Notes: generated from the sequence alone by a model not told the origin. DNA of 64,000 nt from Nitrospirae bacterium JdFR-85 (GCA_002011745.1 MTOU01000012.1:57732-121731); one strand, 5' to 3'; shown: positions 20,697 to 35,317, counted from the first letter of the stretch. Program-made: numbers and translations.

Positions 20697-21953
20697 TTAC
20701 TCTAAGATAGGCTCTTTTTTGACTGTATAATAAAATTTATTCTTGAATTCAGTGGGCTTCATTCGTGCTACAAGAGCAAGTTCTTTGAGTCTGTCTCCTT
20801 TGAAGTCTGACTTCTCAAGTCTTATCATATACTTTCTTGCTACCTGATAACCTTCTGATCTGATGCTTACCTGTCTTATTCGGGTCTTGTCTGTGGCAGG
20901 GTCTACAAGATCCTTGAGAGGGATTGCCCTTAGATGACCATCATAGAGTACTATCATGGCACCTGAGCCTCCATTCAGCAGATATCTGACAGCTCCATAA
21001 CCGAGATTTCTTGTATATTCTATATCAAATGGAATAGGGTCAGCAGCCCTGAGTTCATATCCTATGTTTTTGTCGACAATTGTAACCTTTATTCCTCTGG
21101 ATTCAAGACTTTTCTTTACAAAGTGCTTCATGATTCTGCCCAGCTGTATTTCTGATAGTCTGATTCTGCCTGTCTCGTCCATTGTTATCTCCTCATACTT
21201 CTTAAGCTCATCCATCCTGAACTTGTAGGATATCCCTTCTGCAAGAACTGCTACTCCATGGTCTTTACCGAAGTAGAGTCTCTTTATTATTGCACCTTCA
21301 AGGATATCAGCCACCTTACGAATAGAGACCTTCCTTTCAGTAAACTCTTCTGGTATTAATGCGAGGGTCGCTCCTGCAGCCTTGCATATTCCGAGGGCAA
21401 GATGGCCAGTATATCTTCCCATTGTAGTTACGAAGTACCAGCGTCCCATTGTCCTTGCATCTTCCATGAGGTTTTTAACGAGCTGAACTCCCACATCCCT
21501 GGCAGTCTCATAGCCGAAGGTGGGCATACCTCCAGGCAGAGGAAGATCATTGTCTATGGTCTTAGGGACATGAACAATAGATATCCTTCCCATTGATTCC
21601 CGTTCTATAAGGCGGGCCATATAGGATGTGCCATCGCCACCAATTGTGATGAGATACCTTATGTTCAGTTCATAGAGAGTTTTCATAAGGGTCTTCATCC
21701 GGGTCTTAAGACGGCTTGGATAGTCCCTGGATGTTCTTAATATAGAACCACCTTCAGTATGAATACGGGATACATCATCAATGTGGAGAGCTACTGCAGC
21801 AGATTTATCACCAACATAGAGTCTCTTAAATCCGTCTCTTATGCCTACTACCCTGAGTCCAGAGTTTATTGCTTCAATGGTAGCTGCGCTTATAACACCA
21901 TTTATCCCTGGAGCAGGGCCTCCTCCCACAATTATGCCGAGTGTTTCAGACAT
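20697..21953 (-). CDS. pfp: Pyrophosphate-dependent phosphofructokinase
   Basis: GGGPAPG, TIGGDGT, PKTIDND, MGR motifs (short PPi-PFK-like clade); donor specificity is inferred. Confidence 0.8.
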   Translation of the reverse strand: MSETLGIIVGGGPAPGINGVISAATIEAINSGLRVVGIRDGFKRLYVGDKSAAVALHIDDVSRIHTEGGSILRTSRDYPSRLKTRMKTLMKTLYELNIRYLITIGGDGTSYMARLIERESMGRISIVHVPKTIDNDLPLPGGMPTFGYETARDVGVQLVKNLMEDARTMGRWYFVTTMGRYTGHLALGICKAAGATLALIPEEFTERKVSIRKVADILEGAIIKRLYFGKDHGVAVLAEGISYKFRMDELKKYEEITMDETGRIRLSEIQLGRIMKHFVKKSLESRGIKVTIVDKNIGYELRAADPIPFDIEYTRNLGYGAVRYLLNGGSGAMIVLYDGHLRAIPLKDLVDPATDKTRIRQVSIRSEGYQVARKYMIRLEKSDFKGDRLKELALVARMKPTEFKNKFYYTVKKEPILE

Positions 21954-21979
21954 CAGTTTATATTATAACAAAAATCCTT

Positions 21980-23320
<1,341 letters not shown>

Positions 23321-23323
23321 CTA

Positions 23324-24373
23324 TCAAAATAGTTTAAGTATTCTATAATAAGTGTCTCTCTGGGCAGGTCTGAAACCAGCACTTCTTATAGCCTCTATAA
23401 TCTCCTCTTTATTGACTCTATAACTCACTCCTGCTGCTTTCACCACATTCTCTTCTATCATTGTGGAACCGAAATCATTTGCTCCAAACCTGAGGGCCAC
23501 TTGGGCCATCTTAAGCCCCTGAGTTACCCATGATGCCTGAATGTTTAAGAAATTGTCCAGGTATACCCTGGAAAGGGCTAAGACTCTTAAATAGTCTACA
23601 GCAGTGGCAGGACTGAGCCGGATATCACTGCGCGAAAGGAGTTCTGTATTGCCTGGCTGAAATGTCCATGGTATAAAGGCTGTGAAGCCTCCTGTTCTGT
23701 CCTGAAGTGACCTTATCGCATCCAGATGCTCAATTATATCCTCTGGAGCCTCCACAGAACCGAACATCATTGTTGCAGTAGTTTTCATCCCCAGTCTATG
23801 TGCCTCCTCCATAACCTTGAGCCATTGAGATGTCTTAATTTTCTTAGGGCTTATTATCTCTCTTATCCTATCAGAGAGTATTTCTGCACCTCCACCAGGA
23901 ATCGAGTCTAACCCCGCTTCTTTCAGTTTAATAAGGGTTTCTTGGATAGATATTCCCTCCCTTTCTGCAATATACACTATCTCTGGAGGCGAGAATCCGT
24001 GTATATTTATAGCAAAGTGAGATTTAATAAATCTGAGCATATCTGTATAGAATGTAAGACCAAGATCAGGATGAAGTCCTCCTTGTAGTAGTATCTGTGT
24101 GCCCCCGAGATTTATGGTCTCCTCTATCTTCTGTTTGAGTTCATTCTTGGTTATCACAAATGCCTCAGGATGGTCTTTATCCCTGTAGTATGCACAGAAG
24201 CGGCATCTGTTTATACATATGTTAGTGTAGTTTATATTCCTGTCTATTACAAAGGTGACGATTCCCTCAGGATGGAGATTACTTCTTATCTCATCAGCCA
24301 TCTTGCCCAACTCTGTCAGCTCAGCTTCTTTATAGAGTCTCAGTGCCTCTTGCTTTGTTAGTCTACTCATCAT
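23324..24373 (-). CDS. mqnC: Cyclic dehypoxanthine futalosine synthase (radical SAM)
   Basis: DRNINYTNICINRCRFCAY, LLQGG, NIQASWVTQG, GSTMIEENV. Confidence 0.92.
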   Translation of the reverse strand: MMSRLTKQEALRLYKEAELTELGKMADEIRSNLHPEGIVTFVIDRNINYTNICINRCRFCAYYRDKDHPEAFVITKNELKQKIEETINLGGTQILLQGGLHPDLGLTFYTDMLRFIKSHFAINIHGFSPPEIVYIAEREGISIQETLIKLKEAGLDSIPGGGAEILSDRIREIISPKKIKTSQWLKVMEEAHRLGMKTTATMMFGSVEAPEDIIEHLDAIRSLQDRTGGFTAFIPWTFQPGNTELLSRSDIRLSPATAVDYLRVLALSRVYLDNFLNIQASWVTQGLKMAQVALRFGANDFGSTMIEENVVKAAGVSYRVNKEEIIEAIRSAGFRPAQRDTYYRILKLF

Positions 24374-25436
24374 ATACCTTTAAAGGGTTATAAAAACTAT
24401 CCCTCTGTACAGGAACTTTGCCAGTCCTTTTTATAAGGTAAACAAGTTCTTCCTTTTTCATACCTTCTGCTGAGGTAGCTCCTGCAGAATGGGTTATCTT
24501 CTCTTCCAGAACCGTTCCCTCTAAGTCATCAGCACCAAAAAGGAGTGCTATCTGAGAGAGTTTCTCACCGAGCATTATCCAGTAGGCCTTTATATGGGGA
24601 ATGTTGTCGAGGAATAGTCTGCTTATGGCAATAGTCTTCAGGTCATCAATACCAGATGCTATAGAACTGCTCATATTTGTATCTGTTGCATGATAGGCCA
24701 GAGGTATAAATGCCTGGAATCCCCCTGTTTCGTCTTGTAGCGCCCTTAACATTGACAGGTGTCTGATCCTGTCTTCTAAGGATTCGATATGACCATAAAG
24801 CATTGTGGCATTGGTTTTGATGCCCAGTGTGTGTGCTATTTTGTGAATTTCTAACCATCTGTCTGCCGAGATTTTTTCAGGACAGAGCCTCTGTCTTATA
24901 TTATGAACGAGTATTTCTGCCCCTCCTCCTGGCATAAGATCAAGACCATTGTCTTTAAGTGCCATAAGGACATCTCTTATGCTAAGACCACTTATTCTGG
25001 AGAAGTAGTCTATCTCAACAGCAGTAAATGCCTTGATCTGGATTGAGGGGAAGTGTTTTTTTATGCTCGTAAGTATTCTACAATAATGGTCAAAGCTCCA
25101 GTAAGGATGGAGTCCTCCTACAATATGTACCTCTGTAAGCAGTTCTTCTGAAGAACTGATTTTCTCTAAAATTTCTTCAATCGTTAATTCATAAGCACCC
25201 TCTTGTCCCCAGGATCTACTGAATGCACAAAAACGACATCTGTTTACACATATATTGGTGGGGTTTATATGTCTGTTGACTATAAAGTAGGCATAGCTTC
25301 TGTTTATTCTTCTGTTTACAGTTTCTGCAGCCTTGCCCAGGGTGTGAATATCATCGCTTCTGTAAAGAAGCAGTGCCTCCTCTTCTGAGATCCTCTCTTT
25401 TTCCATTGACTTATTAATAATTTCTTCAAATTTCAT
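24363..25436 (-). CDS. mqnE: Aminofutalosine synthase (radical SAM)
   Basis: NPTNICVNRCRFCAF, HIVGGLHP, TMLYGHIE, HIKAYWIM. Confidence 0.9.
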   Translation of the reverse strand: MKFEEIINKSMEKERISEEEALLLYRSDDIHTLGKAAETVNRRINRSYAYFIVNRHINPTNICVNRCRFCAFSRSWGQEGAYELTIEEILEKISSSEELLTEVHIVGGLHPYWSFDHYCRILTSIKKHFPSIQIKAFTAVEIDYFSRISGLSIRDVLMALKDNGLDLMPGGGAEILVHNIRQRLCPEKISADRWLEIHKIAHTLGIKTNATMLYGHIESLEDRIRHLSMLRALQDETGGFQAFIPLAYHATDTNMSSSIASGIDDLKTIAISRLFLDNIPHIKAYWIMLGEKLSQIALLFGADDLEGTVLEEKITHSAGATSAEGMKKEELVYLIKRTGKVPVQRDSFYNPLKVYDE

Positions 25437-25546: not shown

Positions 25547-26458
25547 GTGAAGAGATTTTTCCTCTTCAGTGTTTTATTCTTGTTATTAACTGATAACCTG
25601 TATTCCTCTCAAAATGAACTCTTTTTTACTATTCAGATAGGAAGCTATAAAAGACTTTCTCCTGCAGAGAGGACTTATGATGCTCTATCAAGGTATTTGA
25701 AGGAGAAGAATGATCTGGATCATCTCAGGATTGAGAAGGTGAAAGGATATTATACTGTCAGACTGGGAAAGTTTAAGGAGAGGGTTTTGGCAAAGGAGTT
25801 ATTAAAAAAAATAAGGAATAAATATCCGGATGCAACGATTCTTTCAGCTTATGTGCTTGAGGAGAGAATTGTAAAAATATATACTGAAGGTTCTTCTACA
25901 AAAGAGCTTTCTATTAGAGAGACAGACTTAATTAAAGAAGAAAGGGAGGGACTCAAGAAGTTTGATAAAGAAGCTGTTGAACAGAAGTTGGATTATCCAA
26001 AAGAGAGGGTATCACTTAAAGAGTTGATCCAGATAGTCAAGAGATTGATAGACAAAGGTCAGTTTACTGAGGCTATGGCACTGCTTGATATAGGATTGGA
26101 GAAATGGCCGAATAATGCAGAGCTGTTATGGCTGTATGGTTCAGCATTAATGAAAATGAGCAAACCTTCAGAGGCCCATGATTATTTTTCTCGAGCTGTA
26201 AAACTGGCTCCTAATAAGGCAGACTATCACAATGGTCTTGGTTATAGTCTCTTATATCTTGGCAAGGTTTTCAGCGCTATAAGTGAGTTTAGTAAGGCTA
26301 TTCTGATAGATCCCCAACATGTGGATGCACTTGCAGGGTTAGTTATAGCTTACACAGAAGCAGATATGAGAGATATAGCACAAGAGTATTTTGATAAGTT
26401 AAAAAGACTGGATCCTGTTGTAGCAGAAAGTATTTCTCTGGTAATGAGAAAAAAATGA
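25547..26458 (+). CDS. Exported SPOR-domain + TPR protein
   Basis: Signal peptide; SPOR FTIQIGSY..YTVRLGKF; C-terminal TPR repeats. Confidence 0.8.
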   Translation: MKRFFLFSVLFLLLTDNLYSSQNELFFTIQIGSYKRLSPAERTYDALSRYLKEKNDLDHLRIEKVKGYYTVRLGKFKERVLAKELLKKIRNKYPDATILSAYVLEERIVKIYTEGSSTKELSIRETDLIKEEREGLKKFDKEAVEQKLDYPKERVSLKELIQIVKRLIDKGQFTEAMALLDIGLEKWPNNAELLWLYGSALMKMSKPSEAHDYFSRAVKLAPNKADYHNGLGYSLLYLGKVFSAISEFSKAILIDPQHVDALAGLVIAYTEADMRDIAQEYFDKLKRLDPVVAESISLVMRKK

Positions 26459-28065
26459 AAAGATTTAAAGGATTTATTATTCTCTTCTTTATTTTATTGT
26501 GTATATCACCCTTACAGGCCTCAGAGGAATACTACACAATACAGGCTGGTAGCTTCAAGAGTATTCAAGAGGCAGAAAGGAAGTATGCATTATTAGAAGA
26601 GAAATTGTCTCCTGAGAAGAGAGACTTTCTGAGGATCGAGCTTGTTAAAGGTTACTATACCCTAAGGATAGGTAAGTTTAATAGTTTCAAAGAGGCAAAG
26701 GTTCTATTGCCAGAGATAAAAGAGTTATTCCCTAGTTCTCTTATCCTTAAGGCATTTGTGCTTGATAAGAGGATAAAGAAACTCTACAGATACAAAGAGA
26801 CAGAATCTGTTGCTGCTGTGCCTATTGAAAGAGAGAAGGTGCCTTTAAAGACAGAGGCAAAAAAGACAAAAGAACGACCTAAGTATGTAGAAGCAGATAC
26901 CGAAAAGGTTGAGCCTGCTCCTACCGAGGTAAAGAGATATGCTCCTGTATCAAAGGTTGTACCTTTCAAGTTTATTCTTCCTGTTGTCTTTATTGTGGTT
27001 GTCGGGTTTGTAATATATTACAACAGAAGAAGAATTCTCATAATGATGGAAGAAATAACAGGAACCTCCAAAGGTGTGAGAAGGATACTTAAGAAGAGTG
27101 TAGACAAGGATTACAGGCATAGTTGTCTTGAAGCTCCACGTTATTTATCAAGTCTATTGGTCGAAAGGGTGAAGAATATCATGCAGGATACGGATATAAA
27201 CAGAATAGATATGCCTGTGCAGATAAGAGTTGATAAACCCGTAAAAGACTCTTTATGGATATGTAAAGAATTGAATAATACCTTGAAAAGGTCAACAGGA
27301 ACAATAATGGTTTTAGATGATCTTGTTATTCCAGAAGGAGAGAAGGTTCTTGGAGAAATGCTGGTGAAGGGCGATGTGAAAGTATCTCGTACTGCTACGG
27401 TGAGGAGTATCGTATCTGAAGGAGAGATAAAAATAGGTAAGAGGGCGAAAATACTAAAGTACCTTGATGCTGATATGGGGATTAAGGCTGAGGATGGTTG
27501 TATATTAGGTGAAGCAGTATCCACTGAAAGGGAGCTATATATTGAAAAGGAGTGTCAGTTTACCTGTCTGTATGGTAAGCCTATAAGGACTTATAATTTT
27601 ACAAGTACACTGAGAATGCATGAGACTGATAATCTAATAACACTCCAAGCCAAACACCTTAATGTGCCTGTTAAGTTTTTGAAAGATTCGCTACTTTTCA
27701 CGAAGAAAGAACTGATAATTCCTGAGTTGATAAGAACAAATAAAAATGTTGTTACTACAGAGAGTCTCACAATAAAAAAGGGTTGTGTAATAAACGGATA
27801 TATAAAGGCACAGAAAGATATTATTATTCATGATGATGTGATGATAAATGGAGCAATATACTCTTATGGTAACTTGGTAATAGGAAGAAATGTAAAAGTA
27901 TATGGGAGTATTAGCTCAGAGGGTAGAATAGTAATCGATTCAGGAGTAAGAATAGGTGGAAGAGACAAAGAAGTGAAGGTTTTTTCTAAAAAAGAGATCG
28001 AGCTTATGGAGAATGTAGAGATTTATGGGACAGTTTATGCAGAAGAGGGTGGAAGAGTTATTTAA
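26455..28065 (+). CDS. SPOR domain + TM + C-terminal bactofilin-like beta-helix protein
   Basis: Signal peptide, SPOR YTIQAGSF, linker, TM FILPVVFIVVVGFVIYY followed by RRR, repeated (V/I)xGxI/IxI beta-helix motifs. Confidence 0.7.
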   Translation: MKRFKGFIILFFILLCISPLQASEEYYTIQAGSFKSIQEAERKYALLEEKLSPEKRDFLRIELVKGYYTLRIGKFNSFKEAKVLLPEIKELFPSSLILKAFVLDKRIKKLYRYKETESVAAVPIEREKVPLKTEAKKTKERPKYVEADTEKVEPAPTEVKRYAPVSKVVPFKFILPVVFIVVVGFVIYYNRRRILIMMEEITGTSKGVRRILKKSVDKDYRHSCLEAPRYLSSLLVERVKNIMQDTDINRIDMPVQIRVDKPVKDSLWICKELNNTLKRSTGTIMVLDDLVIPEGEKVLGEMLVKGDVKVSRTATVRSIVSEGEIKIGKRAKILKYLDADMGIKAEDGCILGEAVSTERELYIEKECQFTCLYGKPIRTYNFTSTLRMHETDNLITLQAKHLNVPVKFLKDSLLFTKKELIIPELIRTNKNVVTTESLTIKKGCVINGYIKAQKDIIIHDDVMINGAIYSYGNLVIGRNVKVYGSISSEGRIVIDSGVRIGGRDKEVKVFSKKEIELMENVEIYGTVYAEEGGRVI

Positions 28066-29504
28066 CTTTTTGAAAGTCTTATCCAGAAGCGGGGAGCCTC
28101 CTTTCCCAGTCCTTCTACAACGACAGGATATAGAATCCCTTTTCCATTCTTAGAAAACTTTTTTACAAGTTTTTTGCTATTAATTGTTATCTTGATTCCT
28201 CGATCATCTCCTGTATTTACTGTTATCCCTGGAGGCACAAAACCTTTGAAGTTGATAGGATAATCTATATTTGATGCACTGTCTCCAAATACCTTCAGGA
28301 TCTCGATTTCGTCACCATCTTTTAAGTTTAAAATCTCTTCTGATAGAATAGCTTTTAGCTGTTTGTTTACTCTTACAATAAAAACCCAATATCTTGCTTT
28401 GTTATTTTTTCTTATTTTGATGTCTACAGAACCAATCTTTATATTATCCTTTCTGAAGATTATCTTTGTACTATGGGAAATTCTTAGAGGTTTGCGATAA
28501 TCATTCACATCACCTATACCAAGTATATCACAGGATAAACCCCTTTCACAGTTAGATTCAATATGTGTTACCATTATTTCCGATTCTGCCTCCAGAAAGA
28601 CGGTTTCTCCATTTGTGACTATCAGCGGTCTTCCATTTATATTAAGCACCACATACTTCAGCACAGGTTTTATAAGGAGTACTCTCGGCTGTTCAGGCAC
28701 TATCCCGAAAATCTTCATAAACTCATTTATCACATAATTATGGTGAAGAATCTTTAACTCTATATCTGGAAGATTTTTAGAAGTCTCGACACCAAATGCT
28801 AAAAGGCAATGATACTTAAGGGCATAGTAGGTAGCAGTTTTTTTCATCTCAGGGAAGGGTGTATCAGGTGCATCTGTTTTTGTATTCAGAAGATGCATAT
28901 GGTATTTTTCTTCTTTTATCTTTTTGTTTACATTTTTAATTACTTGCTCTGCAATTTCTTTTAGACGGAGCTCTCTTCCGTTCTCGCAAGTATACACATC
29001 GGTGTCTATTATTATTGATTGACCAAATCTGTAAGGATTGTACAATTCATTAATATAAACAGGTCTGTAAAACCCATATCCATCATGGAGATTTAAAAAT
29101 ACATCAGCCTCTTTCATCAATCCCTTTATAATGGTTACAACTTTATCCATCATAGAATTGCCGTTTTCTTTATCAAAGATCCTGTTCATATCTCCATCTA
29201 CACCACGTTTAAAAAGAATTATGGATTTAAAATTTGCCCTTGGAACTACTATTAGGTTGCCTTTTTCTAAGGTGAGTTCTGTGTACAGGTCTGCAGACAG
29301 AAACCCTCCTGGTTCGTCTCCCTGGATGCCGCCTATGATAAGCATGGTTTTACCAGGTTCTCTGCCATATATCTTGTATACATGAAGTTCATAGGATGTT
29401 CCTTTTAGATACACTAAGTGTTCTGTTTTTGTCCTGTTTTTTGCTATTACACTAACAGGGAATATCAGTGTGAATAAAACTATAAGATGTAGTAACACTT
29501 TCAT
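28062..29504 (-). CDS. Peptidase M99 D,L-carboxypeptidase, Csd4/Pgp1-like
   Basis: GGIQGDEPGG (Gln-type Zn ligand), DMNRIF, LHDGYGFY, GVETSK; signal peptide; ATGA overlap with the upstream gene. Confidence 0.85.
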   Translation of the reverse strand: MKVLLHLIVLFTLIFPVSVIAKNRTKTEHLVYLKGTSYELHVYKIYGREPGKTMLIIGGIQGDEPGGFLSADLYTELTLEKGNLIVVPRANFKSIILFKRGVDGDMNRIFDKENGNSMMDKVVTIIKGLMKEADVFLNLHDGYGFYRPVYINELYNPYRFGQSIIIDTDVYTCENGRELRLKEIAEQVIKNVNKKIKEEKYHMHLLNTKTDAPDTPFPEMKKTATYYALKYHCLLAFGVETSKNLPDIELKILHHNYVINEFMKIFGIVPEQPRVLLIKPVLKYVVLNINGRPLIVTNGETVFLEAESEIMVTHIESNCERGLSCDILGIGDVNDYRKPLRISHSTKIIFRKDNIKIGSVDIKIRKNNKARYWVFIVRVNKQLKAILSEEILNLKDGDEIEILKVFGDSASNIDYPINFKGFVPPGITVNTGDDRGIKITINSKKLVKKFSKNGKGILYPVVVEGLGKEAPRFWIRLSKS

Positions 29505-30784
29505 AGTGGATTCCATCTTTCTACAACAATCTTATAATCTCCTGGGCATCCCTTTAAGACAAGTGTTTTTATGCCCTTATCCTTGAGAGTATCTGAACTG
29601 TACTCCTGTACGAAAGTGACTTTTACCAGAGAAGGTTTCAGAAGTCTAAAGGTAAGACCATTGAATTTTATAAAATTAATACTTGTTGTTGAGAATATTC
29701 TCTCTTTGTATTCTTCCCATTCCTTAAGCCCGCCTCTTTCAAACTTAAAAGATTCGTCATAGAATTTAATATATTTCATTATATCCTGAGTCTGCCATGT
29801 CTGGATCCACCTTTTTACAAAGTCTCTTATATAGGGAGCGATGGCTGTCATCACATTTTCAGGAAAGAATTCCTCTGCAATAACCTTGTATTGATTACTT
29901 TTATTATCTGCTTCAAAATATATCCTTTTGATTCCATAGTCTATATACCGGTCAGAACAGTACAGTTGTTTGAACTGATACATTAATTCAGACGAATTCT
30001 CTTTAAAGACAATAAGGTCAGAGATTTTTAGCCTTCTTTTTTTATCAATAGCAAATATTTTTCTCTTTCTTTCAAGGTATTCCCTTAATCCCTCTCCAGA
30101 ATTATTTCTGAATTTTGTGTAGAACCTGGAGGCAAAGGCTTCAAAATTTCCTTTCTCCCAATCTCTTAAAAAGGTTTTAAGGATACTGAATACTTCTTTC
30201 TTTTTTTTCATATACTCCTTTGGTGATAAGAATTCTACTTGTCGGGTTATTAATACAGGGGTATCTACTTCTATATGTTGTTTGAGATACAGGAATGCAT
30301 CATTTGGAAGAGAGATGCAACCATTGGTTCTTCTGTTGTTATTGTAAATACCCCTTCCATGAAGCCATATTCCATGTCCAGTTTTATTGTATATCCTGTC
30401 TACAATATTGGGGTAGTTAATAGGAAAGGCTCCGGCTCCATATAGATTTCTGTTTAATTTCCATTCAGGAATAAAACCTGTAACAAAATATATTCCTTCA
30501 GGAGTCCGACTATCACCCTCTCTTATTTTGTCTCCTTTGTTTTTACCAGTAAATACATTGTATGTATTTAATACAACAGGAATGTTATCAGTGATTCTAA
30601 CAAAAAATAGTCTTTCTGTGTCCTTTTCCACCAGTATCACATTTTTATCATTATCTGAATACTCAGAGAAGATATTTCCGGGTATTTTCTCCTCAGCAAA
30701 GCAGATGCAAAGGAATGAAGAGGAGATTACAAGCACTGTTATAAACACAGATGCTGTATATAATTTTTTAGTTATAAGTCTCAT
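29501..30784 (-). CDS. YkuD L,D-transpeptidase/carboxypeptidase with NTF2-like C-terminal domains, Csd6/Pgp2-like
   Basis: GDKIREGDSRTPEGIY, YPN, GIWLHG..TNGC catalytic motif; two NTF2-like segments (FLRDWEKGN, WIQTWQTQD). Confidence 0.82.
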   Translation of the reverse strand: MRLITKKLYTASVFITVLVISSSFLCICFAEEKIPGNIFSEYSDNDKNVILVEKDTERLFFVRITDNIPVVLNTYNVFTGKNKGDKIREGDSRTPEGIYFVTGFIPEWKLNRNLYGAGAFPINYPNIVDRIYNKTGHGIWLHGRGIYNNNRRTNGCISLPNDAFLYLKQHIEVDTPVLITRQVEFLSPKEYMKKKKEVFSILKTFLRDWEKGNFEAFASRFYTKFRNNSGEGLREYLERKRKIFAIDKKRRLKISDLIVFKENSSELMYQFKQLYCSDRYIDYGIKRIYFEADNKSNQYKVIAEEFFPENVMTAIAPYIRDFVKRWIQTWQTQDIMKYIKFYDESFKFERGGLKEWEEYKERIFSTTSINFIKFNGLTFRLLKPSLVKVTFVQEYSSDTLKDKGIKTLVLKGCPGDYKIVVERWNPL

Positions 30785-31003: not shown

Positions 31004-32914
31004 TTAAGGTTGTTTGGATTTTAAAAAATTGGGATGGGGTTTCCTCACATCTTCTACACGGAGGGTAATTTTATTTGAATCGAGGTGTTCAAGAAATGGT
31101 AGGGCATACTTACGGCTTGTGTTGAGAAGATCTCTGAACTCACCCACTGTCATTCTATCTTTTTTCTGGAAGAAGTTTCTCAATCTCCGGAGCATTTCGT
31201 CGTAATGCTCCTTAGTAAGATAGAAGGTGTCATTTATCCTCTTAAGCACACCTTCTTCAACCATAAGTTTCAGGATATCGTCTACTTCACCTGTTTTGAG
31301 GGAAAAATACTCTGCCAGTTCCTCCCTGGAGAGAGGTTGATATGCCCTTTCAGTAAGTAGTCTAAGTGTTTCATCTCTTATCTGTCTATATCGGTCTGTC
31401 AGGGCTACTTTGAAATCTCTTAAGCGGATTATATCCTTTTCAACCTCTGTTTCTTGTGTAAGAGAGAGAATTCCATCAAATATAGAGTGCGGGAGTCCGA
31501 AGAGTGACCTAAGGGTCTCTTTCTCCATTCCACTTTTGAGGGGATTGTTTTTGTGAAATCTTCTGAGGGTGTCAAGGATTTTTACTTTCAGTTTTTCATA
31601 TATCTCTCTGTGTATGAGACTGCCATCATACTGAAGAATAACCCTTTCATTTTTTAAATTATCAATAGCCTTCTCTGTGTCTTTAGTTGTGGTATTGATC
31701 CATCCCTTCAGAGTATTTAAAGGTATACCCTTAAGGCCTGATTTAAGCACCTTCATAGAGAGCTTCTCTTTAAGGTTCCCTTTTTCATACACAATAAGGT
31801 CTTCTATACCCTCCTTTTTCTTTCTCTTTTTAGGATAAGGGTCGAGTATGATCCCTCCTCCGATTGTTTCAACAGGTGAGAACCTTCTTATCACAAATCT
31901 ATCACCCGCTGAGGCCACCACAGGTGACTGAAGCCGGATCTGTGCATAACAGGTCTCACCAGGTTTCAGAGTTTCTTTATCATAGAGTATTACTCTTCCC
32001 ACAGTCTCGGATGTATAGAGATGGAAATGAACAGGAGATTTGTTCTTGAGCTCTGGAGCATCCCTGAGCAGATGGAGTTTTACATCTACCGCCTGAGTAG
32101 GTCTGAAAATATCTGGTGTAAGGACCATATCGCCCCTTTTAAGGTCCTCTTTCTCCACTGCATGAAGGTTTATAGCCACTCTCTGACCGGCAATAGCATA
32201 CTTTATAGGAGTTCCATGGCTCTGGAGAGTTCTTGCCTTAGTATGAATTCCTGCTGGAAGTATCTCCACTTTGTCATCCACTGCCAGTCTACCTGAAACA
32301 GCAGTTCCTGTAACCACTGTCCCGAATCCCTTTAGTGTGAATACCCTGTCTATAGGAAGCCTAAACACTCCTTCCGCAGGCTTTGTGCTGACTTTTAAGG
32401 AGTATTCATGTATTTTATCTTTTAGAAGAGGTATATTCTCACCTGTTTTTGATGACACAGGCAGTATATCAGCACCTTCGAGAAAAGTCCCCTTTATGAA
32501 CTCTTTTATGTCATCTATAACTAATTGAAGCCATTCCTTGTCCACAAGGTCTATTTTTGTAACTACCACAATACCGGATTTTATCCCCAGAAGATTGCAT
32601 ATAGCGAGGTGTTCCTTTGTCTGTGGCATTACTCCCTCATCTGCTGCAACAACCAAAAGAAGTAGATCAATTCCTCCTGCTCCTGCAAGCATGTTTTTAA
32701 CAAGTCTCTCATGGCCTGGTACATCAACAATACCTACCACTATACCATCAGAATATCGCAGATAGGCAAACCCGAGATCAATTGTTATTCCTCGTTCCTT
32801 CTCCTCTTTAAGGCGGTCAGGGTCAATACCTGTTAGGGCCTTTACAAGGGCACTTTTGCCATGATCTATATGGCCCGCTGTACCAAGAATTATATATTTC
32901 TCTGTAGAAGGCAT
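31004..32914 (-). CDS. selB: Selenocysteine-specific elongation factor
   Basis: [24 protein letters not shown]-terminal winged helices ending in [13 protein letters not shown]. Confidence 0.97.
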
Positions 32915-32927
32915 GTTATAAATTATA

Positions 32928-34187
32928 TTACTTTCCCTTTAAAATCTTCATCAGAAGACCATAGGTTTTTGTTACAGCTCCCTGATGTTCTCTGAAAAGC
33001 ATAAGGGCCTTTTTGCTCATCTCAGTAGAGAGTCTTCTGTCTTTTAGTATTTTCAAAAGAACTCTGTAGAGGTTTCTTGCATCGGTCTTTATAGCTGCCC
33101 TGGATCTGAAGAACTCCTCTGCCAGTGGAAAATTCTCCATGGAAGGACCACATATTATCGGTTTTGCCCATGACGCGGCCTCGAAAAGGTTATGTCCTCC
33201 ATGAGGAATGAAACTTCCTCCAATAATACAGACATCTGCACTGCCATATACAGAGGTGAGTTCTCCAATTGTGTCAAGCAGTACCACAGAACTGTCTGTC
33301 CTGACTCCTTCAGTCTTTTTACTGAATCTTAATTTACTGTCTTTCAGGAGTCTTTCTACCTCTTGGAACCTCTCAGGATGACGTGGTGCCAGTATAAGGG
33401 TTGCCTCAGGGAAGTCCTCTTTTAACCTCTTGAAGGTCTCCAGAATAATGTCCTCCTCGCCTTTATGGGTGCTTCCAGCTACTATAACAGGTCTTCTAAG
33501 GTGTTTACACCACCCAGGCACCTTATCCGAAGGTCTTACATCCATCTTAAGATTGCCTGTTATTTTTACTTTCTTCTTAGGAGCACCAATACTAATGAGT
33601 CTTTTTGCATCTATGTCTGTCTGCATACAGTAAAGCGTGCCCTTTGATAGCATGCCCCTCATGAAGAAGCCTATTCTTTTGTAGCCCCTAAAAGAACTTT
33701 CAGATATCCTTCCGTTCACAACCACTATCGGAATTCCCTTCTGAGAGGCGATATAAAAGAGATTGGGCCAGAGTTCTGTCTCCATAATGATTATGAGATT
33801 GGGTTTAATAGTGCTTATAAATCTCTTTACAGAGAAAGAGAGATCGAAGGGTGCAAAAAGCACTTCTGCCTTGTCTTTTAAGAATTCTCTGGCCACTTTT
33901 TGGCCTGTATCTGTGACCGTGGTTACAAATAGCTCTGTTTCTTTAAGTAAGAGACTCATCAGCGGTCTTGCTGCGATGGCTTCACCTACAGAGACTGCAT
34001 GTAGCCAGATTCTCTCCTTAGGAGGATTCTCTTTTGTTCTGTTGGAATTGATAAATCCAAACCTCTCTTTTAACCATCTCTTCCGTATCTCAGCAGGCTT
34101 CCGGAAGTAATAATAAGGGAGAATAAAAGGTAGAATAATAAAAAAAAGAAGATTATATAGAGGTCTCAAGAGCCTGAATCCTACCAT
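32928..34187 (-). CDS. waaA: Kdo transferase
   Basis: WLHAVSVGE, ETELWPN, GSTH, APRHPER, GGHN. Confidence 0.95.
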   Translation of the reverse strand: MVGFRLLRPLYNLLFFIILPFILPYYYFRKPAEIRKRWLKERFGFINSNRTKENPPKERIWLHAVSVGEAIAARPLMSLLLKETELFVTTVTDTGQKVAREFLKDKAEVLFAPFDLSFSVKRFISTIKPNLIIIMETELWPNLFYIASQKGIPIVVVNGRISESSFRGYKRIGFFMRGMLSKGTLYCMQTDIDAKRLISIGAPKKKVKITGNLKMDVRPSDKVPGWCKHLRRPVIVAGSTHKGEEDIILETFKRLKEDFPEATLILAPRHPERFQEVERLLKDSKLRFSKKTEGVRTDSSVVLLDTIGELTSVYGSADVCIIGGSFIPHGGHNLFEAASWAKPIICGPSMENFPLAEEFFRSRAAIKTDARNLYRVLLKILKDRRLSTEMSKKALMLFREHQGAVTKTYGLLMKILKGK

Positions 34188-35317
34188 CCTGTCATCTCAC
34201 CTACCATTTCCGCAACCCTTAATGAGGCATCATGCTTCTGGTACATCTGTCTTATCTTCTTAAAGGATTTCTGCATATACTCTATTGTATTGTCGTCATT
34301 AAGGGTCTTCTCCAGTTCTCTTACAACTCTTTCGGGCGTGGCATCCCACTGAATCAACTCCTTTACCACCTCTTTCTGAAGCAGAAGGTTTACAAGGCTT
34401 ATAAACTTAACATCCACCACTGCCTTGCCTATCAGGAATGTGAGGGGAAAGAGTTTATATACCACAACCATAGGCGTACCAATAAGGGCAGCCTGTAGAG
34501 TGGCGGTGCCTGAGGCAATAAGGGCTGAGTCTGCCGCAGACAGTGCCTCTGTAGCCCTTCCTTTAAGTATAACTGTGCCTTCTTCTTTAAGAGGGTTCAA
34601 TTGGCCCAAGAATTCATTCTCATCAAGGTTAGGTGCAAAGGGTATTATATACTGAAGGTCTCTGTATTTCTGTTTAAGAATTCTAATAACCTTGGTATAC
34701 AATGGAAGAAGTCTCTTAAGTTCACTTCTTCTGCTACCAGGCAATAGTGCCAAGACCCTGCCACGAGGAGAAAGTCCCAGTTCTTCACGAATATAACCTT
34801 TACTGCCCTTGATTGTTGTTATCTCTTCCATAATAGGGTGTCCTACAAACTCTGCCTCAATTCCCCTTTTTTTATAAAATTCTTCTTCAAAGGGTAGTAT
34901 CACGGCTATTTTATCGCAGAGTTTTTTTATTTTTTTTACCCTTTTCTTTCTCCATGCCCATACCTGTGGACTCACATAGTACAGCACTTTTGAACCAGAG
35001 GCCTTTGCCAGCTCAGCAACTTTGAGATTAAAATCAGGAAAGTCTATGAGTATTACAGTCTGGGGTAACAGTTGTGATAGTTTCTCTTTGACTGTATTAT
35101 AATTTTTTTTTAACATTCCCATATGGCTTAAAGTTTCGGTAAGTCCAAAGGCACCTGTAATATATCCAAAGAGTCTTACTCCTTCATTCTCCATTCTTTT
35201 ACCACCAATGCCATAAAGTTCGATGTCTCTGTACAGTTGCTTTAGTCTTCTCGACAGGAGGGCACCGTAGAGTTCTCCAGAACTCTCTCCGGTAATTATA
35301 AAGACCCTCTTTGTCAT
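34181..35317 (-). CDS. lpxB: Lipid-A-disaccharide synthase
   Basis: GESSG, IDFPDFN, SPQVWAWR, LPGSR, SGTATL. Confidence 0.96.
   Translation of the reverse strand: MTKRVFIITGESSGELYGALLSRRLKQLYRDIELYGIGGKRMENEGVRLFGYITGAFGLTETLSHMGMLKKNYNTVKEKLSQLLPQTVILIDFPDFNLKVAELAKASGSKVLYYVSPQVWAWRKKRVKKIKKLCDKIAVILPFEEEFYKKRGIEAEFVGHPIMEEITTIKGSKGYIREELGLSPRGRVLALLPGSRRSELKRLLPLYTKVIRILKQKYRDLQYIIPFAPNLDENEFLGQLNPLKEEGTVILKGRATEALSAADSALIASGTATLQAALIGTPMVVVYKLFPLTFLIGKAVVDVKFISLVNLLLQKEVVKELIQWDATPERVVRELEKTLNDDNTIEYMQKSFKKIRQMYQKHDASLRVAEMVGEMTGW

Follow-up and report, generated by a model that had tools for sequence, protein, structure and literature searches.

The peptidases Bd1075, Csd6 and Pgp2 are proven LD-carboxypeptidases that give cells a curved or helical shape (PMC8938487, PMC4599014, PMC3961634). 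In Helicobacter, Csd5 and CcmA belong to shape complexes (PMC9507126), and Csd5 binds the peptidase Csd4 with a dissociation constant of ~4.5 uM (PMC4220969). Pgp2 was itself found through its co-occurrence and neighbourhood with pgp1, the two genes lying within 300 bp in Nitratiruptor, Nautilia, a Desulfococcus and Persephonella (Frirdich et al. 2014, PMC3961634). What restricts such trimming enzymes to a single face or zone of the cell remains the open question in the morphogenesis of Helicobacter, Campylobacter and Bdellovibrio. Here we analyze a block of four genes, designated A to D, in a 64,000-nucleotide stretch of DNA (the window) from Nitrospirae bacterium JdFR-85 (GCA_002011745.1, MTOU01000012.1:57732-121731), a Thermodesulfovibrio-like member of the Nitrospirota. 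Within this block, counterparts of Csd6/Pgp2 (D) and Csd4/Pgp1 (C) stand next to two genes encoding SPOR-domain proteins (A and B).

By sequence, the D-C pair is an old, widely spread operon with an already known enzymatic core. What is undescribed, and specific to the lineage, is the addition of SPOR-TPR and SPOR-membrane-bactofilin-like partners to this known operon. We consider it somewhat probable that the block as a whole is a sequential trimming operon tied to a lineage-specific, envelope-spanning positioning pair.

Organization and conservation of the four-gene array

The block consists of four intact long open reading frames (ORFs) arranged as two convergent pairs. On the plus strand, gene A (25547-26458, 303 amino acids [aa]) encodes a SPOR-TPR protein and is followed by gene B (26455-28065, 536 aa), which combines a SPOR domain, a membrane helix and a β-solenoid. 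On the minus strand, gene D (29501-30784, 427 aa), encoding a YkuD domain and two NTF2-like domains, precedes gene C (28062-29516, 484 aa), which encodes an M99 peptidase. The A/B junction is an ATGA overlap. The D/C overlap spans 16 nt when C is counted from its first ATG, and becomes an ATGA overlap if C begins at codon five (ATG at 29504, giving 480 aa), which is the likely start; a 480-aa database entry identical to C begins at this ATG. B and C converge with a 4-bp overlap (TTAA), and a hydrophobic export segment is present at the N-terminus of all four proteins. A prediction made earlier from the sequence alone (the original prediction) had described an ATGA-coupled peptidase pair converging on two SPOR-domain genes with a 4-bp overlap, and all of these features are present.

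Three genera of a single uncultured Nitrospirota family carry the four-gene array, with orthologues that are 34-70% identical. Among the six M99-positive genomes of this family, D-C is present in all six, B converges on C in five (the contig of the sixth ends 278 nt past C) and A adjoins B in four (in a fifth, the contig ends inside A). Furthermore, a metagenome scan with a narrow alignment of B returned one locus, a 19-kb contig on which all four genes, A to D, are found together. Of the 23 other genes that the window has at 12-45 kb, none recurs in the flanks of the relatives, even within the genus, indicating that the four genes stay together while their surroundings change. The original prediction depended on conserved linkage, and in the source lineage the four genes do form a conserved linked set.

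In the genomes sampled, the long form of B is restricted to those with an M99 gene. Within the family, B is found in four of five M99-positive relatives and in none of 17 M99-negative ones (22 genomes, the source genome itself not counted). In a 301-genome sample of the phylum, the long form of B (defined as an open frame of at least 500 aa, or one cut by a contig end) occurs in 5/9 M99-positive genomes (three families) and in 0/292 M99-negative genomes, eight of which harbor short B forms of 279-413 aa. The SPOR domain was confirmed by Pfam in both long-form B genomes outside the source family.

The predicted trimming enzymes, their spread and their probable origin

The predicted D protein is composed of a YkuD catalytic domain (residues 48-179; 30248-30643, minus strand) and two Cds6_C NTF2-like domains (29870-30193 and 29516-29827, minus strand; 44.8 and 71.4 bits, each above the cut-off of 27). 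In Pfam, YkuD scores 59.7 bits (cut-off 23.4) and the two Cds6_C stretches total 99.6 bits (cut-off 27), and D is the only Cds6_C gene of the source genome. Its best PDB match is Bd1075 (7o21, E 2.3e-37; identified as Bd1075 in PMC8938487), and it also matches Csd6 (4xzz, E 6.5e-27) and Pgp2 (6xj6, E 1.9e-17); at E <= 0.01, four distinct PDB sequences match D, all of them from these three enzymes. D keeps the His-Gly-Cys triad (H142, G143, C156), and the Csd6 residues E110, Y133, H155 and W158, mutation of which abolishes activity (PMC4599014), correspond to E89, Y115, H137 and W140 of D, all of them kept. Like Csd6, Pgp2 and Bd1075, D is exported and carries its NTF2-like part after a YkuD catalytic domain with the same triad. 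In contrast with these enzymes, it has two NTF2-like domains instead of one. Furthermore, only ~47 residues, signal peptide included, precede its catalytic domain, and the N-terminal dimerization domain of Csd6 is probably missing.

These similarities favor the identification of D as an exported LD-carboxypeptidase of the Csd6/Pgp2/Bd1075 type rather than as a transpeptidase. The YkuD fold is common to D and LD-transpeptidases, and D presents a weak NCBIfam match to LdtF/DpaA (17.5 bits, versus a cut-off of 365), as would befit an enzyme for 3-3 cross-linking or for anchoring proteins in the wall, in which case the locus would remodel cross-linking and not trim stems. However, the only PDB matches of D at E <= 0.01 are three proven LD-carboxypeptidases, D has both the NTF2 domains and the essential residues specific to Csd6, and it is coupled to C, an enzyme using its product, making a transpeptidase very improbable.

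The M99 catalytic domain of C (residues 50-272; 28701-29369, minus strand) scores 138 bits against Peptidase_M99 (PF17033; cut-off 27), and a search of the source genome identified C as its single copy (139.7 bits). C matches Csd4 (4q6m) with E 6.3e-30. Csd4 is characterized by a QxxE...H metal motif with an atypical Gln, a general base (Glu222) and two arginines, Arg86 and Arg94 (PMC4220969), and their counterparts in C are Q65, E68 and H144 for the metal, E244 for the general base, and R104 and R112. These six residues are invariant in 15 sequences of 44-100% identity, and the GIQGDEPGG motif that the original prediction had noticed in the M99 gene lies at residues 63-71. The domain assignments of that prediction (M99, YkuD, NTF2, SPOR and TPR) were likewise borne out by the Pfam and PDB matches.

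Qualitatively, the structural model of C (predicted local distance difference test [pLDDT] 77) resembles Csd4, its top fold match in Foldseek (E 3.3e-19, 448 aligned columns). Superposition on Csd4 (420 aa) yields a template-modeling (TM) score of 0.40-0.45 and a root mean square deviation (rmsd) of 16.6 A, suggesting that the domains are packed differently. C has its catalytic domain in common with Csd4/Pgp1, down to the atypical Gln that binds the metal, the general base and the two arginines; an overall three-part build, with a carboxypeptidase domain and two β domains, may also be common to them. It differs from Csd4 in that the sequence alignment spans the catalytic domain alone (residues 50-266), and from both in its C-terminal half, which defines a separate, widely conserved subfamily named 'M14/M99 family metallopeptidase' at NCBI; residues 273-484 are covered by no Pfam model. 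C is accordingly a predicted exported DL-carboxypeptidase of the Csd4/Pgp1 M99 type, and we hold the enzyme assignments of D and C with high confidence.

To place the enzyme pair in a broader context, one genome per species was scanned with an alignment of C homologues and the best 80 loci were kept, the groups represented being Nitrospirota, Deferribacterota, Gammaproteobacteria, Fidelibacterota/Marinimicrobia, Thermodesulfobacteriota, Gemmatimonadota and others. In 72 of these 80 loci, from at least six phyla, C is preceded on its own strand by a D-like gene. It is directly adjacent in 46, separated by one gene in 25 and farther away in 1; six loci have no D-like gene within the flank of C, and in two its position is beyond assessment. 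The one-gene-gap layout is found chiefly in Thermodesulfobacteriota and 'Deltaproteobacteria'-labelled genomes. A Pfam scan of 128 neighboring ORFs from 18 of the 80 loci encompassed 16 D-bearing loci, with YkuD and Cds6_C in 16/16 and two Cds6_C stretches in 15/16. The neighbors vary by phylum (RsmB/F and acylphosphatase, SecDF, or Fur), and no relative of A or B was detected by tblastn at E <= 1e-4 in the 78 non-Nitrospirota loci. In loci of Desulfobacterota, the small conserved ORFs that precede the pair or lie between its two genes yielded neither SPOR nor TPR hits (E <= 0.05). Most D-C genes are called hypothetical, or just M14/M99 peptidase, in the source names seen, and many of the named carriers bear '-vibrio' or '-spirillum' names, which is no more than suggestive as to their cell shape.

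The original prediction, as we understand it, treated two such peptidase genes standing side by side outside Campylobacterota as a novelty. This part of it is refuted by the survey and by Frirdich et al. 2014 (PMC3961634), who reported trimming genes side by side outside Helicobacter and Campylobacter; their neighborhood comprised four organisms, versus 72/80 loci across phyla and two layouts here. An operon of Csd6-like and Csd4-like genes with two layouts across phyla should be useful for annotating genes that are now mostly hypothetical.

Several loci with these enzymes present features of their own. The protein encoded between D and C in four of them (L051, L094, L071, L106) is 229-278 aa long and has no Pfam family (weak rows above E 0.002), and the position of this intervening gene (D-x-C) is conserved across Thermodesulfobacteriota and one Nitrospirota genome. 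In Balneatrix alpica (L033:9537-11219), a gene encoding a TolC-like outer-membrane efflux protein (OEP, 195 bits) with a C-terminal Cds6_C NTF2-like domain (69 bits) converges on the C gene of a D-C operon. In Deferribacter abyssi, a 447-aa convergent neighbor of C with no Pfam family was considered as a B homologue and found to be unrelated (BLASTP E 9.7).

M99 is rare in the phylum, scoring above cut-off in 9/301 sampled Nitrospirota genomes, from three families, and in 8/41 close relatives of the source genome. To elucidate the origin of the pair, we inferred a tree of C from 72 proteins, 13 of 85 rows having been dropped for a short or interrupted aligned piece. The resulting tree, unrooted and obtained with a quick method, shows that the five source-family sequences define one clade (Shimodaira-Hasegawa approximate likelihood ratio test support 99), within a group that includes Deferribacterota (97). 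A second Nitrospirota family has its C proteins inside the Thermodesulfobacteriota part; in this family, C and D lie 1.56 Mb apart in one genome (G037) and take the D-x-C layout in another (G281). The tree suggests that the D-C pair of the source family was probably acquired sideways, with Deferribacterota as its nearest relatives, and two separate acquisitions are its simplest reading.

The GC content of the block is 35.45%, versus 41.5% for the genome (~6 points lower), placing it among the lowest 52 of 4201 equal-sized genome windows (1.24%). Third-position GC is 0.31-0.33 in the block genes and 0.36-0.41 in the flanking genes, and a block more AT-rich than its flanks, as judged by eye in the original prediction, is thus confirmed by the scan. 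The orthologous blocks of relatives lie only ~0-4 points under their own flanks. The strong AT dip is therefore particular to the source genome, and base composition was rejected as proof of transfer, the argument for which rests on the tree. On one side, the block is flanked by genes encoding a pyrophosphate-dependent phosphofructokinase, enolase, MqnC and MqnE, the latter two of the futalosine route to menaquinone (20697-25436), and on the other by genes encoding SelB, WaaA/KdtA and LpxB (31004-35317). Its nearest neighbors, mqnC-mqnE and selB-waaA-lpxB, are all housekeeping genes. Promoter-like sites show no excess (21, versus a mean of 21.1 in shuffled sequence).

Two further M99 loci of the phylum deserve mention. 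In a genome of another Nitrospirota family (G293; L108:1108-3416), a classical M99 gene, which scores 259 bits against PF17033 and is far nearer the Pfam model than C, is overlapped at its start by a gene resembling VanY-type D-Ala-D-Ala carboxypeptidases, forming another trimming-type pairing. In a 71% complete genome (G012; L019:5779-7240), the C orthologue is split into two frames of 173 and 277 aa, reflecting a broken gene or an assembly error.

The SPOR-domain partners

B begins with a signal peptide and a SPOR domain (residues 24-97, extending to 102 in the model; Pfam 34.8 bits, cut-off 21), followed by a disordered Pro/Glu/Lys linker (~103-165) and a membrane helix (~166-189) with the sequence NRRR after it. 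Beyond the membrane helix, the model predicts three helices and a β-solenoid (256-536), whose bactofilin-like core (residues ~417-532; 27703-28050, plus strand) was delimited by structure superposition and by a Pfam match at 439-530. The overall pLDDT of the model is 64, with values of 70-90 in the domains. Superposition of the SPOR domain is good with both RlpA SPOR (Z 9.1, rmsd 2.1 A, 72/77 residues, VIA-align) and CwlC (TM 0.74). A Foldseek search with the whole model matched the SPOR domain alone, with no hit at E <= 0.001, and the β-helix was placed by VIA-align only. In these superpositions, the core, modeled as a right-handed β-helix, matched BacA (2n3d; Z 11.4, rmsd 2.8 A, 103/103 residues) and the Thermus bactofilin (6ria; Z 11.2, rmsd 1.7 A, 88/90 residues). 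The solenoid is expected on the cytoplasmic side, given that the SPOR domain has to contact the wall.

The number of relatives identified for this cytoplasmic part depended on the method, a word-index search returning 3 proteins and a full HMMER search 1240 cluster representatives (E <= 0.001). Among sampled members of this B family, Pfam Bactofilin is matched at E <= 0.001 in 77/101 and SPOR in 9/101, and a custom profile located an N-terminal SPOR domain in 12/151; the remaining members are mostly ~340 aa long, with one N-terminal hydrophobic segment. Other results weigh against a bactofilin-based reading of the locus. Other β-helices reach a similar Z with the core of B, most of them (left-handed) at an rmsd of ~11 A, and the fold alone is thus no proof of bactofilin membership. 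The Pfam Bactofilin (PF04519) match of B, at 26.4 bits (24.8 bits in the genome search), stays under the cut-off of 27.9, and profile comparison with the source genome's own 125-aa bactofilin gave a probability of 3.6%. Bactofilins are usually small, have a short N-terminal membrane-targeting peptide and polymerize independently of nucleotides; B departs from this build in its length of 536 aa, its transmembrane helix and its periplasmic domain. On its predicted fold, B is therefore bactofilin-like and not a bactofilin. The label 'SPOR-bactofilin-like' in the original prediction was fair in its '-like', given the fold and family evidence, and the Pfam score does not carry it further. A 483-aa frame antisense within a B orthologue (L016:1057-2508, minus strand) is probably a compositional by-product rather than a gene.

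A starts with GTG, preceded by AGGAGG, and is a predicted exported periplasmic SPOR-TPR protein, with a SPOR domain at residues 27-98 (36.6 bits; PF05036, cut-off 21), several TPR models over cut-off (~159-290) and an invariant YHNGLGY patch at residues 227-233. Its orthologues in relatives are 34-49% identical and adjoin B homologues. The source genome (G000) also encodes a 423-aa protein with two SPOR stretches and TPR next to an HflX-type GTPase (contig C16, L102:1775-3046). This protein is found as well in relatives without M99, and A is a probable shorter paralogue of it, the longer protein being the housekeeping parent. A and B share 44% identity over their N-terminal SPOR modules, which suggests local duplication. 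The predicted complex of C (28-484) with A (24-303) scored 0.00 and is uninformative either way.

Possible function and comparison with known shape systems

The working that we infer, from sequential trimming and the topology of B to the recruitment of the enzymes by A or B and the effect on curvature, would be as follows. D would remove the terminal D-Ala from tetrapeptides (free stem peptides), and C would then take meso-diaminopimelate off the tripeptides, leaving dipeptides; stems trimmed in this manner would no longer be open to cross-linking. B would assemble beneath the membrane, pinned through its SPOR domain to peptide-free glycan, and A would bind the same wall sites and, through its TPR groove, act as adaptor to C, D or B. 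Trimming might thereby be confined to particular zones of the sacculus, with local shifts in cross-linking leading to curvature or to the shape of the pole. That the four genes work together appears fairly probable, and a curved or helical shape as the outcome is proposed only tentatively.

The main competing explanation holds that D-C is the sole functional unit, performing ordinary stem-peptide trimming, such as in wall maturation or to limit cross-linking generally, and that A and B are division or pole SPOR proteins neighboring it by descent, which would make the locus just an ordinary member of a known operon class. Several observations speak for this explanation or weigh against a cooperating array. 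The A-B and D-C pairs are convergent, and hence separate transcripts. No SPOR gene was seen near D-C in any of the 18 loci checked outside the source family, indicating that the enzymes do not need A or B, and A itself appears to derive from a housekeeping 2xSPOR-TPR protein that M99-negative relatives also have. In a genome of another family (G281), a full-length relative of B lies next to anthranilate synthase, on a contig other than that of D-x-C, and no B match was found in four other M99-positive genomes of that family. Moreover, the genomes in the co-occurrence analysis are related and not independent, so that the counts overstate the evidence, and the carriers of the array are all uncultured. 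Characterized SPOR domains are reported to target the division septum and its peptide-free glycan (bioRxiv 10.1101/2022.07.01.498525), and a function in division or at the pole would fit as well as curvature. Against D-C acting alone, however, the array is intact in three genera at 34-70% identity with every flanking gene different, no B was detected in the 17 M99-negative family genomes and no long form in the 292 M99-negative genomes of the phylum sample, and we regard this explanation as unlikely.

The two SPOR domains of the set, together with the same septal biology (bioRxiv 10.1101/2022.07.01.498525), are also consistent with a module acting at division, in which SPOR-guided trimming at the septum or new pole would set pole shape or inertness and B would provide a link to a cytoplasmic scaffold. 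This appears quite unlikely, given that no division gene is present in the block or its flanks and that characterized relatives of both enzymes are reported to act in curvature or helicity (PMC8938487, PMC3961634). Under the preferred reading, that of a trimming operon with an envelope-spanning positioning pair, the likely positioning parts are encoded beside the enzymes, and one of them joins wall-reading to a cytoskeleton-like domain in a single chain. B would then combine in one chain the roles that Csd5 and CcmA play together in Helicobacter. The further proposal that B is the first one-chain envelope-spanning shape determinant, with a SPOR domain reading peptide-free glycan outside and, across a single membrane helix, a bactofilin-like polymer inside, and that it positions with A a horizontally acquired trimming pair as an independently evolved counterpart of Csd5-CcmA-Csd4, is rather doubtful. 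If true, it would represent a direct physical coupling of wall chemistry on the outside to the cytoskeleton on the inside.

The self-contained curvature module of the original prediction is still a hypothesis, and the block is not the only shape-type locus of the source genome. On contig C2 (~217.6-218.9 kb; L004:609-1499, 1471-1848), a gene for a membrane-anchored M23 peptidase overlaps that of the canonical 125-aa bactofilin (93.7 bits), forming a pair of the Csd1/CcmA or LmdC/BacA type; the best NCBIfam rows of the peptidase are MepM, ShyA and Campylobacter Pgp3, all under their cut-offs. In a Desulfobacterales metagenome-assembled genome (L071:5745-11072), D is followed in a row by a gene of 229 aa with no Pfam family, a C of 600 aa, and genes for an M23 peptidase and a bactofilin (93.9 bits); here the trimming pair is linked to a bactofilin in a second manner, unlike that of the block.

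The BacA-LmdC pair of Hyphomonas and csd1-ccmA of Helicobacter resemble the block in pairing a cytoskeletal β-helix protein with a wall hydrolase (PMC10945521). They differ from it in using an M23 endopeptidase, where the block has carboxypeptidases as its hydrolases and a cytoskeleton-like protein whose own SPOR domain provides the wall link. Membrane-anchored bactofilins, ~3.2% of homologues (PMC12448750), share with B a bactofilin-type domain held by a transmembrane helix; the account given of them there mentions no periplasmic domain such as that of B. A paper, its preprint and a review name both bactofilin and the SPOR domain, and by title and abstract they describe no fusion of the two. 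A likeness in concept exists with Csd5 and CcmA of Helicobacter, which also link a wall-binding periplasmic domain, across the membrane, with a cytoplasmic element of bactofilin type, in association with Csd4. In contrast with this system, B is one polypeptide with SPOR where Csd5 has a periplasmic SH3 domain behind an N-terminal membrane helix (Pfam at E <= 0.1 gives no SH3 family for either A or B), its β-helix is ~3x the length of the bactofilin core, and it belongs to neither the Csd5 nor the CcmA family.

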